Shown here: piece by piece, positions 4,208 to 29,366 of the stretch
How the letters are laid out: the number at the start of each line of letters is the position of its first letter
Numbering within the stretch: the first letter of the stretch is position 1
Source: Megasphaera elsdenii DSM 20460
Lineage (GTDB): Bacteria; Bacillota; Negativicutes; Veillonellales; Megasphaeraceae
Direction: 5' to 3'
NCBI RefSeq assembly: GCF_003010495.1
Contig: NZ_CP027570.1
Span: 600,001-632,000, forward strand
Length of the DNA stretch: 32,000 nt
Program-made: the position numbers and the translations under genes
Notes under the pieces: model-generated
What the model was told of the DNA's origin: nothing
The model's input: only the letters and a program-made list of their open reading frames with translations
Database searches by the model: none

Positions 4208-5158
4208 ATGAACCGCTTCATTTATTTCGATAATCTGCGCAGTGCCGCCGTCGTATTGACGCTGGCCGCGTTATTGCTTCAGCCTTGGCACGCTTTCTAT
4301 GAGGAAAGTGCGGTCATCGCCATTTCCATCGTCTTTTTCATCAGTGCCTACTTCGGAGCCTCGGCCCTGCGCATCCGCACGATATCCTTCTTCCTCAAGA
4401 ATAAAGGGAAACGCCTGGGCTGGCCGGGCCTGGTCCTGCTGCTCCTGGGCATGGAGGAACAACTGGTGACTGCCAGCCTGCCGGTCACGTCATGGGTCCT
4501 GCCCTGGCTCTTCCTGCTCTTTGCCGGATTAGCCCTGGTCAAACAGCTCAACCATAACATCTTGCAGCATCGCATCGCCTCGAAGCCCTCCGTCCCGTTC
4601 CTGCTGGCTTTCATCGTCATCCTGGCAGCGGCCCTCTTCTTCTGCCAGGCCTGCCTGCCCCAGTCCCTGGCTATCCCCTATATCGCCCAAGTCCGTCCGG
4701 ACTGGCTGGTCCTGTCTTTCTTCTCCTTTGGCTTAGGCGTCTATGCCTTCCGCCATCGCTGGTTCACGCCGTCCGGCTATCAGCCCAAGGGCAACGGGCT
4801 CCTGGGCTTTGCCATCATGGTCGGCGTCTACGCGGCCTGGATGCCCGGCAAAGGCGCGACGATCCTGACGGCGCTGACACCGACGTTATTGCTCATCGCT
4901 TCTGTCCTGGGCCTGTCGGCCTGCTTCCGCCAGCAGTTCAACGCGCATACGGCCTGGTCCCACACGCTGCACCGCATTTCCTACGGCCTGTTCTTCGTCA
5001 GCGAACCGATCATCATCCATTCGATGTGGTTCTTACAGCCTCTGGCCGTCGCCCTATGGCTGAAAATCGTCATTACGGCCCTCGTCCTGGCGATTTATGG
5101 CTACCTGCTCTGCCGCTATGCCCTGCTCCACATCCCATGCTTTAAAAGCAAGGGATAA
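4208..5158 (+). CDS. Polytopic membrane protein, acyltransferase-3 (OafA/OpgC)-like
   Basis: Track ORF 4172..5158. Start at ATG 4208 after AGAAAGAAGG. About 9-10 hydrophobic helices. N-terminal YFDNLRSAAV and C-terminal ISYGLFFVSEPIII resemble AT3 family signatures. The family assignment is tentative. Confidence 0.45.
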   Translation: MNRFIYFDNLRSAAVVLTLAALLLQPWHAFYEESAVIAISIVFFISAYFGASALRIRTISFFLKNKGKRLGWPGLVLLLLGMEEQLVTASLPVTSWVLPWLFLLFAGLALVKQLNHNILQHRIASKPSVPFLLAFIVILAAALFFCQACLPQSLAIPYIAQVRPDWLVLSFFSFGLGVYAFRHRWFTPSGYQPKGNGLLGFAIMVGVYAAWMPGKGATILTALTPTLLLIASVLGLSACFRQQFNAHTAWSHTLHRISYGLFFVSEPIIIHSMWFLQPLAVALWLKIVITALVLAIYGYLLCRYALLHIPCFKSKG

Positions 5159-12900: not shown

Positions 12901-14465
12901 TCGAAGACCTGGCCGAACTTATCTTCGACCTCAAGAACGCCAACCGCAAGGCTACGATCGGCGTCAAATTGACGTCCGGCGCCGGCATCGGCACGATTGC
13001 AGCCGGTGTCGTCAAAGCAAAAGCCGACGACATCGTCGTCAGCGGCTATGACGGCGGGACCGGCGCTTCGCCGCGTACCAGCCTGCGCCATGCCGGCCTG
13101 CCCTGGGAAATCGGCCTGTCCGAAGTCCAGCAGACACTGCTCCTCAACCGCCTGCGCGACCGCGTCACCCTGGAAGTCGACGGCAAACTGCTCACCGGCC
13201 GCGACGTCGCCATCGCCGCCCTCTTCGGCGCTGAAGTCTTCGGTTTCGGTACGGCGCCGCTCCTGGCCATCGGCTGCCATATGCTGCGTGTCTGCCACCT
13301 CAACACCTGCCCGTACGGCGTCTGCACACAGGACGAAAAACTGCGCAAACGCTTCAAGGGCAAACCGGAATACATCATCAACTTCATGCGCTTCGTCGCA
13401 CAGGACCTGCGGGAAATCATGGCCCGCCTGGGCTTCCATACCATCGACGAAATGGTCGGCCGCTACGATTGCCTGAAACAGCGCGATCACTTCGGCAACT
13501 GGAAAGCCAAGACGGTCAACCTGAAGAACCTCCTGTACCGTCCGTACACCGACGCTTCCGTCGGCCAGCACTTCACAACACCTCAGGACCACAAGATCAA
13601 CACGACCCTGGATATGTCCAAACTGGTCCGCATGTGCCGTCCGGCCCTGGAAGAACAGAAACATATCCGCGCCCGCCTGCGCATCAAGAATACGGACCGC
13701 GTCACCGGGACCATCCTGGGCAGTGAAATCACCAAACGCTATGGCGAAAAAGGCCTGGCCGAAGACACGATCATCTTGTCCTTCGTCGGTTCGGCCGGCC
13801 AGAGTTTCGGCGCCTTCATCCCCCATGGCCTGACACTGACCCTGGAAGGCGATGCCAACGATTACCTCGGCAAAGGCCTGTCGGGTGGCAAGATCATCGT
13901 ATCGCCGCCGCGGGAATCGGTCTTCCCGGCGGAAGACAACATCATCATCGGCAACGTCGCCTTCTACGGCGCGACCAGCGGCGAAGCTTACATCAACGGC
14001 ACGGCCGGTGAACGCTTCTGCGTCCGCAACAGCGGCATCAGCGCCGTCGTCGAAGGCGTCGGCAACCACGGCTGCGAATACATGACCGGCGGCCGGGTCC
14101 TCATCCTCGGCCAGACAGGGCGCAACTTTGCTGCCGGCATGTCCGGCGGTATCGCCTACGTCTATGACCTGGATCCGAACAAATGCAATAAAGACCTGGT
14201 CAAACTGGAACCGCTCACGGATGACGATGAAAAAGCGGCCGTCAAGACGATGTTGGAAAAACACGTCAAATACACGGACAGCAACTTGGGCCATATCCTC
14301 TTAGAAAACTGGGACGACACCGTCACTCACCTGACCAAAGTCATCCCCGAAGCCTATGAAGAAATGGTCGCCCTCATCGCCCAGGCGGAAGCCGAAGGCC
14401 ATACCGACCAAGAAGCACACATGATTGCATTCGAAAAGAAACACGGAAAGAACGGAAAGAAATAA
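9903..14465 (+). CDS. gltB: Glutamate synthase large subunit
   Basis: Track ORF 9387..14465. The real start is ATG 9903 (MNKEMRDLPSPQGLYDPSYEHDACGIGIVANIKG...) after AAGGGGGA, giving 1520 aa. It has the Ntn-amidotransferase Cys (HDACGIG), the FMN/3Fe-4S central domains and the C-terminal GXGXG beta-helix region. Confidence 0.95.
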   Translation: MNKEMRDLPSPQGLYDPSYEHDACGIGIVANIKGKKSYGIIDDALTILENLRHRGAEGADANSGDGAGILVQIPHQFFKRECEVLGFSLPDEGEYGVGMIFAHRYETFRKKQMEAFEDIVRSEGLSILGWRDVPVDESLIGNIAKQTCPHFLQVFIRKDPTMKTQMDFERKLYVIRKLAEKAIVPESQKNGTDFYIASLSSKTIVYKGMLTSMQLRHFFLDLSDLDFVTSMALIHSRFSTNTFPSWARAHPNRYIVHNGEINTIQGNINWLNAREGKSKSDFFPDMEKVFPVVDDTGSDSSMFDNCLEYLYMTGHSLPHAMMMMIPEPWERDPLMSDEKRDFYRYHNFMLEQWDGPAAIGFCDGTVIGGMLDRNGLRPARYYVTRDDRVIVSSEVGVVNIPPEDVLYKGRLEPGKMLLVDTNKQRIIDDDEIKHEIATEHPYHEWYKEHIVNLDDLMTGQNIANSDAIIPYDLKEQEKVFGYTQEDMDKVILPMARDAQHAIDSMGVDVPLAVLNDRPQLLYDYFKENFAQVTNPAIDGVREKTVMSSAVMAGNVANIMEPNEASTAALYLKGPILTNEQMSVIKSLMTPKLRAATLSMLYPVNSGAEGMETAIESLCIDALKAIKNGANILVLSDRGVNSRMAAIPALLASAALHHYLIDKAVRSDVGLILESGEPREVHHFCTLIGYGITAINPYIALESIKELIANKKLQKIDYETAKQNYIDAAVKGILAVMSKMGISTVHSYHGAQIFEAVGIKQDLIDKYFCNTPSRIEGLGIAEIAKENALRHEEAYSTGDKLERGDFYQYHKGGQPHIIDPETVQLLQKAVQNDDYATYKKYADHVNRQTIFRLRDLLDFEYPAGSSIPIEEVEPVDSIVKRFRTGAMSYGALSKEAHECVATAMNRLGGMSNTGEGGEDSARFNTETNDRIKQVASARFGVTSDYLIHADELQIKCSQGAKPGEGGHLPGNKVYPDIAKTRHATTGVALISPPPHHDIYSIEDLAELIFDLKNANRKATIGVKLTSGAGIGTIAAGVVKAKADDIVVSGYDGGTGASPRTSLRHAGLPWEIGLSEVQQTLLLNRLRDRVTLEVDGKLLTGRDVAIAALFGAEVFGFGTAPLLAIGCHMLRVCHLNTCPYGVCTQDEKLRKRFKGKPEYIINFMRFVAQDLREIMARLGFHTIDEMVGRYDCLKQRDHFGNWKAKTVNLKNLLYRPYTDASVGQHFTTPQDHKINTTLDMSKLVRMCRPALEEQKHIRARLRIKNTDRVTGTILGSEITKRYGEKGLAEDTIILSFVGSAGQSFGAFIPHGLTLTLEGDANDYLGKGLSGGKIIVSPPRESVFPAEDNIIIGNVAFYGATSGEAYINGTAGERFCVRNSGISAVVEGVGNHGCEYMTGGRVLILGQTGRNFAAGMSGGIAYVYDLDPNKCNKDLVKLEPLTDDDEKAAVKTMLEKHVKYTDSNLGHILLENWDDTVTHLTKVIPEAYEEMVALIAQAEAEGHTDQEAHMIAFEKKHGKNGKK

Positions 14466-14501
14466 AAAAAAGGCGCTGTCGCGATGCGACAGCGCCTTTT
14501 T
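14464..14501. terminator. Bidirectional intrinsic terminator after gltB
   Basis: A8 run, GGCGCTGTCGC-gat-GCGACAGCGCC, T5 run, directly after the TAA stop. Confidence 0.85.
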
Positions 14502-14535
14502 AGTGGTTAGCAGCTAGTGACTAGGGGTTAGCGGA
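14501..14535 (+). repeat. Five phased heptads, each starting with TAG
   Basis: TAGTGGT TAGCAGC TAGTGAC TAGGGGT TAGCGGA. The TAG triplets fall at 14501, 14508, 14515, 14522 and 14529 (exact period 7). Confidence 0.7.
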
Positions 14536-14594
14536 TGGCCAAACCTTCGTGTGACATTCTTTTTAAATTGTTCGTTGTTCGGGATAAAGTGCAG

Positions 14595-14880
14595 GAATAC
14601 AAAAGGCTCCCATACTAGGGGAGCTGGCCGCCAACGGCGGTCTGAGAGGTTCTTCTGGAGAGGTTACCGTCGGCCGCCTGGCCCCTGGCTGGTTCGCGTG
14701 CTCCACTCCTCTTGCCGAGAGTGCCATTTTCTGGCGTGCTGAAACTCGCTACGCTCAAACAAAGCAGCACGCCGGACGCAAATAGCACGCACGGCATCCT
14801 ACACGGTCCATAATGACCGTGCAGGCCGAGGTCGTTCCCGCAATGTCACCAGCCAGGGGCCAGGCATCCGACTTGATTTG
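14595..14880 (-). ncRNA. Candidate orphan structured RNA (family unknown, strand tentative)
   Basis: GC-rich island flanked by AT-rich DNA with no credible ORF. A perfect 18-bp long-range helix (14676-14693 with 14848-14865) extends by 5 bp (14669-14673 with 14868-14872). It encloses hairpins 14812-18/14825-31 (7 bp), 14733-41/14765-73 (9 bp), 14696-702/14784-90 (7 bp) and 14704-08/14719-23. On the minus strand a GCUCCC/GGGAGC hairpin followed by CUUUUGUAUU (14621-14595) resembles a terminator. Confidence 0.35.
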
Positions 14881-14906
14881 CTATACTAATAATAAATTGA
14901 TATAAG
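14878..14906 (+). promoter_or_regulatory. Extended -10 promoter for the YjbR-like gene
   Basis: TTGCTA (14878-14883), 17-nt spacer, TGaTATAAG (14898-14906). Confidence 0.45.
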
Positions 14907-15003
14907 GATTTTTCTGATATATAATTAATGAAACAACAAATTCTCTTTGAGTTTGCTGCTTCATTTTTGGGAGATAGTATTTAGAAAAAGAGGTGCTGGC
15001 CCG

Positions 15004-15690
15004 ATGATTCCCATCGAGGAAACTGTCTTTTCCCGCAAACGGTGGATAGAAAGTAAAATGCTCGCCTATGGCTTTCATAAAGCAAACAAAACTTATATTC
15101 TTGAAAAACCATTTCTTGACGGAGATTTCAAAACCGTCCTTTCCGTTACCCCCAAAGGACAGGTGACGGGCAAGGTCATCGATTCGATGACCCAGGATGA
15201 GTACTATCAGCTGCGACAGGAAACGGCTACTGGGCCTTATGTGAACCGGGTCCGTTCTGCCTATCGCTCCCTGCTCACGGATATTGCAGATTCCTGCTGC
15301 AGCGACGTCCTGTTTGCTTCATCTCAGGCCAACCGGCTGACCCAGGCCATCTTGGACCATTTCCAGGTCAAACCGGATTTTCCCTGGGAACATTCCGCCC
15401 GGTATCAGTCATACGGAGCCTTTCGCCATAGGTCCAACCGGAAATGGTTTGCCCTCATCATGAATGTAACAAGAGATGTGCTGAATAAAGATGGAAACAC
15501 GTCTCCCATCGATATCCTAAATGTAAAGATTTCCCCAGCACAGGGAGAAGAGCTACGGAAAACCCCCGGCATCTATCCCGCTTACCACATGAATCACAAG
15601 ACATGGATTTCTGTGGTCCTGGATGAAACCTTAGCGGATGAAAAGATTGGGGAGCTCATCAACACCAGCTATCAGTTAACGACCACTTAG
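15004..15690 (+). CDS. MmcQ/YjbR family DNA-binding protein with N-terminal extra domain
   Basis: Track ORF 14947..15690. Start at ATG 15004 after AAGAGGTG. The C-terminal half (...FRHRSNRKWFALIMNV...YPAYHMNHKTWISVVLDE...) matches the YjbR/CyaY-like fold family. Confidence 0.7.
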   Translation: MIPIEETVFSRKRWIESKMLAYGFHKANKTYILEKPFLDGDFKTVLSVTPKGQVTGKVIDSMTQDEYYQLRQETATGPYVNRVRSAYRSLLTDIADSCCSDVLFASSQANRLTQAILDHFQVKPDFPWEHSARYQSYGAFRHRSNRKWFALIMNVTRDVLNKDGNTSPIDILNVKISPAQGEELRKTPGIYPAYHMNHKTWISVVLDETLADEKIGELINTSYQLTTT

Positions 15691-20709: not shown

Positions 20710-20989
20710 AAAAAAAAACTTTGCCTCTAAAAAGAGACAAAGTATTCACTCTGCGGTACCACTCTCATTGTCGTAACGACCACTTTTCCAGCATCTCCGG
20801 GACAGCCCATGTAATGCCTGGCAAGGTAACGGTTGCCTGCCGGCTGCGTCTACTAACAAAATGCGTTCGGGCAGCAGCTCCTGGACGACTTCACGCCGGG
20901 ATCCCATCCTGCCTCTCAGCCACCAGCAGGTCTCTGTCATAGTTTCCCAAACCTTACTACTTCCATTCAACACTGTTTTGTATTTGTTG
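20710..20989 (-). promoter_or_regulatory. T-box leader (probable Val specifier GUC) upstream of BASS paralogue 1
   Basis: Minus-strand elements: AGUAGUA specifier-loop 5' side; AGAGA bulge plus distal loop CCUGC-UGGUGGCUGAGAG-GCAGG; GAA-GUC-G at comp(20887-20889); T-box sequence AAUGAGAGUGGUACCGCAG (20769-20751); terminator CUUUGUCUC-uuuuu-AGAGGCAAAG followed by U9 (20742-20710). Confidence 0.8.
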
Positions 20990-29056: not shown

Positions 29057-29366
29057 AAAAAAAACTCCGCCCCTCACTGAGGGACGGAGTACTATTCCGC
29101 GATACCACCCTGATTCCCGGTGCATTGCTGCAACCAGGCTCTCTACAACGTACCAACATACGCGTTTCCTATAACGTGGAAAAATCGTCAGTGCTTAATC
29201 TTGCTTCAGCACTTCTCTTCGGGGATGATTTTCAATCGCCATTCATTACCGGCTCGCACCAGCCGCCGGTTCTCTGGGAATGTCCGGACGAACTACTCTT
29301 TCCCGTCATCAGATTTCACTATATGCTTTTGCGAGCCGTTATCGTTGCGGCCCGTTTGAAAAGCTT
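29057..29366 (-). promoter_or_regulatory. T-box leader of the ilv operon (probable Ile specifier AUC)
   Basis: Minus-strand elements: K-turn CUGAUGA; AGAGUAG; CCAGAGAACCGGCGGCUGGUGCGAGCCGG distal Stem I; GAAA-AUC-A at comp(29227-29229); T-box AAUCAGGGUGGUAUCGCGG (29115-29097); terminator ACUCCGUCCCUCAGUGAGGGGCGGAGU followed by U8 (29092-29057). Confidence 0.85.

Follow-up and report, generated by a model that had tools for sequence, protein, structure and literature searches.

The gltB gene, encoding the large subunit of glutamate synthase, and the YjbR/MmcQ gene of Megasphaera elsdenii DSM 20460 are separated by a spacer carrying a GC-rich island (positions 14595-14880 of a stretch of 32,000 nucleotides (nt) of contig NZ_CP027570.1, here called the window). 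The island is a core-only copy of a family of intergenic elements, and with a probability of about 0.6 this is a previously undescribed, Megasphaera-specific family of non-autonomous, mobile, RNA-structured elements, in which the core would be a conserved structured RNA cargo of ~270 nt read from the minus strand of the window. This reading draws on the recurrence of the core across Megasphaera, on substitutions that preserve pairing on one strand only and on a locus at which empty and filled alleles can be compared.

Recurrence, fold and strand of the core

The first-pass annotation, made from the sequence alone, had treated the island as an orphan, which holds within the window, where neither BLAST nor nhmmer detected a further copy, and fails for the rest of Megasphaera. 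A scan of metagenome contigs with a 23-mer from the interior returned 41 contigs with the core, and the 270-nt core (window 14602-14870) recurs at 87-99% identity in ~20 Megasphaera contexts adjoining gltB, gdhA, typA, cobQ, an ilvB-like gene, lptF/G, a tRNA, a reverse transcriptase (RT)-like open reading frame (ORF) and an FAD oxidase. Megasphaera was named as the source of the neighbour proteins of the five contexts looked up and of the window YjbR, whose homologues (93-98% identical) are named Megasphaera elsdenii, placing the window in the M. elsdenii group. Two contexts (loci L138 and L145) occurred in one sample at equal coverage and therefore one genome holds several copies. No real match was found in phages, plasmids or viral contigs, and a scan of one genome per GTDB species with the 18-mer arm described below gave 87 single chance matches in GC-rich taxa, none of them in Megasphaera and none with both arms, this exact pattern being too strict as the arms of other copies differ by 1-3 bases. 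A search of the literature for Megasphaera small RNAs (sRNAs), repeats or terminator-targeting repeats found nothing specific.

One subfamily (L123, L128, L155, L157 and L159; 88% identical to the window copy) lies ~170-370 nt downstream of a group II intron-type RT ORF. This ORF appears fragmented, with no intron RNA domain found near it at the Rfam threshold.

A repeat finder placed the arms of a 25-nt inverted repeat (92% complementary, 154 nt apart) at 14669-14693 and 14848-14872, with a perfect 18-bp core, GCCTGGCCCCTGGCTGGT, at 14676-14693 and its complement at 14848-14865. The perfect long-range helix closing a 154-nt branched interior, as described in the annotation, was thereby located, with several inner helices predicted, and two 18-mer matches were seen in 0 of 100 shuffles. 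The 286-nt stretch folds at -141.5 kcal/mol on the plus strand (z -7.4) and at -149.2 kcal/mol on the minus strand (z -7.6), with 0 of 200 shuffles as good in either case. For comparative analysis 34 distinct copies were aligned in both orientations (alignment A1, minus; A2, plus) and the same 83 pairs were counted per strand. The parts of the element are as follows.

14602-14870, minus strand: conserved core of the family, common to all other copies (BLAST and nhmmer; 87-99% identity in 50 other loci)
14848-14872, minus strand: 5′ arm, in the minus-strand RNA, of the closing helix P1 (repeat finder, alignment A1)
14669-14693, minus strand: 3′ arm of P1 in the minus-strand RNA, holding the perfect 18-mer 14676-14693
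14694-14847, minus strand: branched interior, in which P2 and P3 prolong P1 to a three-way junction bearing P4 and P5-P7
~14798-14825, minus strand: short hairpin P4, variable, with compensatory changes at two pairs
~14712-14795, minus strand: long hairpin P5-P7 (fold prediction and consensus)
14644-14665, minus strand: CU-rich linker with two AACCUCUC motifs, unpaired in the consensus
14628-14640, minus strand: small hairpin hp1, CCGCC-GUU-GGCGG (helix 8, 98.8% paired)
14624-14606, minus strand: terminator-like hairpin hp2, GCUCCC-CUAGUAU-GGGAGC, with the tail CUUUUGUAUU at 14605-14596 (terminator scan)

In A1, P1 has 21 pairs in the consensus, 25 in the window, and is 99.3% paired, with six pairs varying on one side as G·U and three showing compensatory double changes. 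The single-sequence fold and the RNAalifold consensus agree on the branched interior, helices 2-7 being 99.5-100% paired on the minus strand. Between this body and the 3′ hairpins, the minus-strand RNA model has a single-stranded CU-rich stretch of ~30 nt in which AACCUCUC occurs twice, the minus-strand copies of AACCTCTC lying at 14644-14651 and 14658-14665 just as the annotation had them. The motif is semi-conserved, reading AACCUCUUC or AACCCCUC in other copies and CAACCUCUCAG in stand-alone small modules, and the linker is a candidate seed or protein-binding site. The two hairpins that follow, likewise predicted from the window alone, were found at 14628-14640 (GGCGG/CCGCC) and 14606-14624 (GCUCCC/GGGAGC). 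In the stand-alone modules hp1 has other sequences with the same pairing (UCAGC/GCUGA, UCCGC/GCGGA), and hp2 (GCTCCC...GGGAGC followed by CTTTTGTATT, which the scan scored as resembling a minus-strand terminator) is retained throughout the copies in the form GCUCCCC/GGGGAGC or GCUCUCC/GGAGAGC, the U-rich tail being peculiar to copies of the M. elsdenii type.

The 3′ module (AACCUCUCAG-hp1-hp2) also stands alone at other Megasphaera intergenic sites, where its stems covary. Such modules of ~55 nt, corresponding to the 3′ tail of the element and made up of CAACCTCTCAG, a covarying 5-bp hairpin and CAGCTCYCC...GGRGAGCC, were seen at L124:8100-8126, L124:10847-10873, L144:1083-1109, L145:559-585 and L147:3014-3040, and look like a second, smaller repeat family.

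Comparison of the copies shows single-strand structural selection on the minus strand, persisting in copies without the mobile ends. The RNAalifold consensus was -128.3 kcal/mol on the minus strand versus -91.0 on the plus strand, and 99.6% versus 89.5% of the cells (83 pairs in 34 copies, the cells not being independent events) were in a standard pair. Pairs varying on one side yet still paired numbered 22 on the minus and two on the plus strand, with three and 24, respectively, departing only by unpaired cells. Compensatory double changes on the minus strand affected five pairs (24 cells), for example C-G to U-A via U·G in P1 and P4, and neither the compensatory cell count nor the covariation score was attained in 500 shuffles, while sliding the pair partners lowered pairing to ~40%. 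Unpaired columns were without transition bias (12 C/T versus 11 A/G polymorphic sites), and paired columns had 21 C-to-T versus 10 G-to-A changes, with most of the latter compensated. When the 15 gltB-locus copies, which are without the mobile ends, were taken alone, 12 variable pairs were kept and four broken on the minus strand, with the reverse on the plus strand. At this locus, identity to the sister lineage is 96-97% for the 3′ end of gltB and 90-91%, with 0 gap columns, for the core, versus 64-65% with 44 gap columns for the left spacer and ~50% for the right spacer, the flanks having many gaps.

The minus-strand model of the annotation (closing helix, CU-rich single strand, small hairpin and terminator-like hairpin) is thus favoured by G·U-preserving and compensatory changes on the minus strand only, with compensatory double changes counted in A1 at three pairs of P1 and two of P4. 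On the strand itself the annotation had been undecided, pointing to a weak plus-strand promoter, TTGTTC-17-TACAAA, at ~14569-14597; the comparative data favour the minus strand, and this promoter has no support. The annotation had also found no signatures of tmRNA, RNase P, SRP, 6S or common riboswitches, and the element has no Rfam match. At the gathering threshold Rfam 15 found in the whole window only two T-box leaders, both outside the element (20730-20979 and 29077-29318, both on the minus strand; 103 and 126.7 bits). A permissive search of 14400-15050 (E up to 10) gave chance-level matches only, the best inside the element being c-di-GMP-I-GGC at 16 bits against a threshold of 59, and a search of the full-length copy L138 (E up to 1) gave nothing relevant.

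Insertion into terminator stems and relation to known repeats

The repeated unit measures 460-540 nt in other species of Megasphaera, beginning at a hairpin, GCCTGTCGCACGTAATCGTGCACAGGC, ~150 nt to the left of the core and extending 45-90 nt or more to its right. At the typA locus two alleles coexist among contigs whose TypA protein is identical, one empty (L161, L164) and one with an insertion of 459 nt (L169, L170). The empty allele, CAAAAAGAGG followed directly by CTGTCTTCATGCGACAGCCTCTTTTTTT, is the typA terminator, and the unit enters between these two segments, within the 5′ arm of the terminator stem. The left hairpin of the unit with its T-run rebuilds the typA terminator, and the right end, ...AAAAAAACAAATCCGG, completes the old stem to form a second one, such that a terminator is left on each side and the element is insulated from its neighbours. 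For the typA locus it is therefore shown that the family spreads by insertion between AAAAGG and CTGTC of terminator stems of the CTGTCGCA...TGCGACAG type. One clean empty/filled pair was compared, and its junction allows two readings, a GG repeat of 2 nt or, with an additional GC, a CTGTC repeat of 5 nt. In the full-length copies whose left junction was read (14 loci) the left end is GCCTGTCGCACG (CTGTCGCACG in one), and it is preceded by an A-tract of the host that terminates in GG (GGAG in one). The CTGTCGCA...TGCGACAG stem core is shared by Megasphaera intrinsic terminators at window 14467-14501, L002:2930-2965, L161:4355-4392 and L140:5050-5115.

The unit has no terminal inverted repeats, its ends GCCTGTCGCACGTAATCG... 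and ...AAACAAATCCGG not being complementary, and the 25-nt inverted repeat lies ~220 nt and ~65 nt inside them. As the two ends do not form inverted repeats, the inverted repeat of 18-25 bp represents an internal helix rather than the terminus of a MITE (miniature inverted-repeat transposable element). A MITE-like origin had been the main alternative of the annotation. Its multi-copy, mobile part proved largely right given the ~20 contexts and the empty/filled insertion polymorphism, but the element is not a classical MITE, given the internal position of the repeat. By definition, MITEs have terminal inverted repeats and target-site duplications that match a parent insertion sequence (IS). Like Correia/NEMIS, RUP and ERIC elements, the Megasphaera family is small, non-coding, multi-copy and polymorphic for presence and absence, with long hairpins, but it differs from them in its termini, in the internal position of its long inverted repeat and in that no parent IS with the same ends was found among 174 loci, both end sequences occurring only with the element.

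Other mobile elements were encountered near the copies. An IS1182-family element of ~1.72 kb with a 544-amino acid (aa) transposase lies at L140:3304-5025 (oriented coordinates) and also in L139, L153, L156, L158, L160 and L171, inserted at an identical position (TTATG^GAACG) of the long-form right arm at no fewer than six loci. It was rejected as the parent IS, being inserted into the long-form right arm of which L138 represents the empty form; either it targets TTATG^GAACG or the composite spreads as a unit. IS200-like elements with Y1 transposases in the same contigs were rejected as a source because their ends are unrelated to those of the unit. Downstream of typA a tRNA gene (L161-L168, ~4770-4840) is a hotspot for islands in element-free alleles, where L163 has an integrase, L165 a PemK-like toxin and L167 and L168 a helix-turn-helix/Peptidase_S24 repressor; the integrase and other islands of L163-L168 were considered as integrations beside the element and discarded, as they are tRNA-targeted and in alleles without it.

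By analogy the family is most like the RNA-structured intergenic repeats of the bcr1, BOX and SPRITE kind, while being a member of none. The bcr1 repeat of the Bacillus cereus group (~155 bp) is dispersed between genes with a distribution that is not conserved between close strains, has base-pair compensatory changes that maintain RNA-level structure and has no transposase of its own; it consists of two independent stem-loops flanked by 5-bp direct repeats and its transcription has been demonstrated (PMC3184786). The Megasphaera family shares the strain-variable dispersal, the compensatory changes and the lack of its own transposase, with no sequence relationship claimed, and differs in that bcr1 is half the size, the Megasphaera fold being an 83-pair Y-shaped domain with an ambiguous junction repeat, a terminator-stem target and a transcript that is predicted only. 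Pneumococcal SPRITE and BOX are terminator-like, modular and transcribed, BOX being in addition non-autonomous with a predicted RNA structure (PMC3184786). The Megasphaera family is also found at terminators and its 3′ module also occurs alone, but there is no homology, the unit splits one terminator and rebuilds two, and BOX modules are far smaller and less conserved than the core. Structure-preserving substitutions among copies, which characterise repeats of this kind, are found in the Megasphaera family as well, and it is set apart by the size and complexity of its conserved fold, the lack of terminal inverted repeats and the terminator-splitting insertion.

Two further comparisons concern the RNA itself. 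The sRNAs of the RoxS/RsaE type in Firmicutes are ~100-115 nt long and single-copy, with conserved synteny and C-rich motifs in loops. The single-stranded C/U-rich motif of the Megasphaera element, complementary to Shine-Dalgarno (SD)-like GAGAGG and beside a terminator hairpin, resembles these, whereas its predicted length of ~270 nt, its mobility and copy number do not, and the Rfam models gave no match. With the bridge RNA of IS110, the omega RNA of IscB/IsrB (HEARO) and group II introns it has in common a structured RNA of 200-300 nt on a mobile element without terminal inverted repeats that inserts site-specifically. In those systems the cognate protein gene is always adjacent, whereas in the ~20 Megasphaera contexts no copy has an adjacent cognate RT, recombinase or nuclease gene, there is no Rfam match to HEARO or introns and the fold has no large guide loops.

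The proposed RNA and rival explanations

The window copy is probably a minus-strand sRNA of ~265-280 nt, as judged from its sequence and those of its relatives. Transcription would start near 14873-14880, just upstream of P1, where a short AAT-rich stretch is conserved (A1 columns 1-11). The RNA would run from the 21-25-bp closing helix through the three-way junction and the CU-rich single strand with its two AACCUCUC motifs to the small hairpin, and would end near 14596 at the GCUCCC/GGGAGC hairpin with CUUUUGUAUU, this window-type 3′ end being intrinsic-terminator-like. In full-length copies the RNA strand continues for ~150 nt to a terminal hairpin followed by CCUUUUCU, an end that was identified by eye, the scans not having flagged it. 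As an independently transcribed sRNA, its rigid Y-shaped body would display the conserved, anti-SD-like CU-rich stretch, which may pair with G-rich ribosome-binding regions or bind a protein.

Several points weigh against this reading. The element is dispensable, with many strains of the M. elsdenii group lacking it and having an empty spacer of 72 nt, and the 18-mer scan of GTDB species representatives returned no Megasphaera locus. No convincing sigma-70-type promoter was found upstream of P1 on the minus strand in scans of the window and of the full-length copies L138 and L145, in agreement with the annotation. The anti-SD-like reading of AACCUCUC is generic, and pairing with generic SD sequences would not discriminate. 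The consensus structure from which the 83 pairs were taken was derived from the same alignment that was used for counting, which introduces a circularity. The additional copies were all ascertained by an exact interior 23-mer, which is invariant by construction and misses diverged members. Lastly, strand-specific pairing with G·U could also serve a single-stranded DNA intermediate of transposition.

This last point underlies a rival explanation, in which the fold acts in single-stranded DNA during transposition by an HUH-type enzyme (IS200/IS605 or IS91/ISCR) and the window copy is a decaying relic. In its favour, the mobile unit has no terminal inverted repeats and no clear target duplication, its left hairpin end (GCCTGTCGCACGTAATCGTGCACAGGC) is constant while the other end varies between a short and a long form, its pairing is strand-specific and tolerates G·T, and the Megasphaera contigs that carry it also hold genes for Y1 transposases (PF01797). 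The IS200-like elements found there have, however, ends unrelated to the unit, no HUH gene is consistently adjacent, and what is conserved is a three-way-junction fold of 83 pairs at the middle of the unit rather than a subterminal hairpin. Moreover, structure-preserving substitution goes on in the gltB-locus copies that lack both mobile ends, and the explanation is on balance unlikely.

An alternative in which the RNA is the working part of its own mobility, acting in trans as a guide or template for a recombinase or RT encoded elsewhere, is modelled on the bridge RNA, omega RNA and intron systems and appears rather improbable. It would fit the site-specific insertion, which uses a single type of terminator stem and has GG (2 nt) at each junction, the lack of terminal inverted repeats, the RNA-level selection on the core, the complementarity of the single-stranded CCUCUU to the AAGAGG left flank of the typA target and the resemblance of the left-end hairpin to the target stem. 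It has to contend with the absence of any adjacent gene for a recombinase, RT, IscB or TnpB in ~20 contexts, whose flanks are ordinary housekeeping genes or islands of an unrelated kind, with an RT-like ORF that lies beside one subfamily on the opposite strand with no intron RNA domain detected, and with a fold lacking the large internal loops used by bridge RNAs. The left flanks in the host differ from copy to copy (AAGAGG, AAAAGG, AAATGG, TAACGG), an argument against any long pairing with a guide, and core-only copies are still under selection. If it were true, the family would be a new type of mobile element with a structured RNA of ~270 nt as its sole conserved cargo, an 'RNA-only' element mobilised in trans and related to the bridge-RNA, omega-RNA or intron systems.

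That the island is a functionless remnant of a mobile repeat, its structure inherited from the founder with no selection, is likewise given little credence. Such a remnant would be dispensable, as the element is in the many strains with an empty spacer, the gltB-yjbR spacer is a hotspot of indels and islands, and promoter scans found none. It would not account for one-sided substitutions in helices that overwhelmingly preserve pairing on one strand only, with loops showing no such bias, nor for compensatory doubles at five pairs, nor for a core that is 90-91% identical and gap-free between flanks of 50-65%.

Two other explanations are very improbable. The element contains ORFs of 63, 60 and 54 aa, and the minus-strand ORF of 60 aa (MPCVLFASGVLLCLSVASF...) might, with its hydrophobic N-terminus, the highly structured mRNA-like fold and the multi-copy family, be taken for a type I toxin mRNA with long-range folding; this was rejected for want of coding selection, since its variable sites are spread 11:13:14 over the codon positions, it is interrupted by a nonsense codon (L102/L103) or by a frameshift (L139, L159, L133), its stop is missing in most copies and AGGA abuts the ATG with no spacer for an SD site. 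The annotation had called the island non-coding with implausible ORFs and the 60-aa ORF bears this out, ORFs of this type being called only eight times in 5.8 billion proteins, with the calls spurious. The notion that the 25-bp inverted repeats flank an inverton controlling the YjbR gene, suggested by repeats of 18-25 bp placed 154 bp apart beside a promoter region, was rejected because the interior had the same orientation relative to the 3′ tail in 51 of 51 copies, and it is further opposed by a GC-rich interior with no promoter-like site, by covariation of the repeats in the manner of an RNA helix, G·U being seen on one strand, and by the promoter of its own that YjbR keeps in element-free alleles.

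The gltB-yjbR spacer and the significance of the family

In the window the island sits in a 539-nt non-coding gap at 14466-15004, between the end of the gltB ORF at 14465 and the yjbR ATG at 15005, the Pfam content of both neighbours having been confirmed on orthologous contigs. The GC content is ~0.58-0.65 within the island versus 0.29-0.32 immediately to its right. Three features lie in the gap outside the element.

14467-14501, both strands: bidirectional intrinsic terminator of gltB, stem core CTGTCGC...GCGACAG (repeat finder and terminator scan)
14501-14535: heptad array TAGnnnn, five units spaced exactly 7 nt apart, immediately following the gltB terminator
14897-14925, plus strand: promoter-like site of the YjbR/MmcQ gene, TTGATA-17-TATAAT, outside the element (promoter scan)

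The gltB terminator is, to judge by its stem, of the hairpin type that the mobile form of the family targets, as in the typA terminator. The heptad array puts TAG in all three frames, and similar arrays, TAGTGGY on one side and CCACGAR on the other, border the stand-alone small modules at other Megasphaera loci.

Within the M. elsdenii group the spacer has at least three alleles, namely empty, element-bearing and AT-rich ORF-island forms. The empty allele, found in sister species and in some M. elsdenii-like strains, consists of a terminator and the ribosome-binding site only, and the element allele of other strains is ~97% identical to the window with extra small indels. The M. elsdenii strain behind assembly GCA_012928525.1 is one that bears the element. 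In the island allele AT-rich ORFs take the place of everything to the left of 14891, and the stretch 14891-14990 including the YjbR promoter-like site is kept in the element-free island alleles L105-L109. The spacer variants compared with window 14466-15004 were L105-L109, L113, L118, L120 and L146, of which L120 and L146 carry both the element and a 3.5-kb island. An 80-aa peptide from one island ORF is presumably a fragment of an Rpn/PDDEXK-type protein. Smaller differences include a 37-nt perfect palindrome, GTGAACGTACTCCCGCC-TATAG-AGGCGGGAGTACGTTCAC, at L001:2522-2560 and also in L100 and L104 (corresponding to ~14560 of the window, from which it is absent), and a separate 39-nt AT-rich indel at ~14881 in L097-L103.

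Megasphaera is a genus of importance in the rumen and the human gut, and if the RNA is expressed the family would represent a new and unusually large structured RNA family within it, with 83 pairs and a strand-specific substitution pattern in its support. The family serves as a marker of spacers that vary between strains, the tri-allelic gltB-yjbR spacer among them, and accounts for an island from which gene callers now and then predict spurious small proteins. Insertion that splits a terminator and rebuilds one on both sides insulates the element and spares the neighbouring genes, while the absence of terminal inverted repeats and of an adjacent transposase makes the family a handle on an undescribed route of mobilisation.

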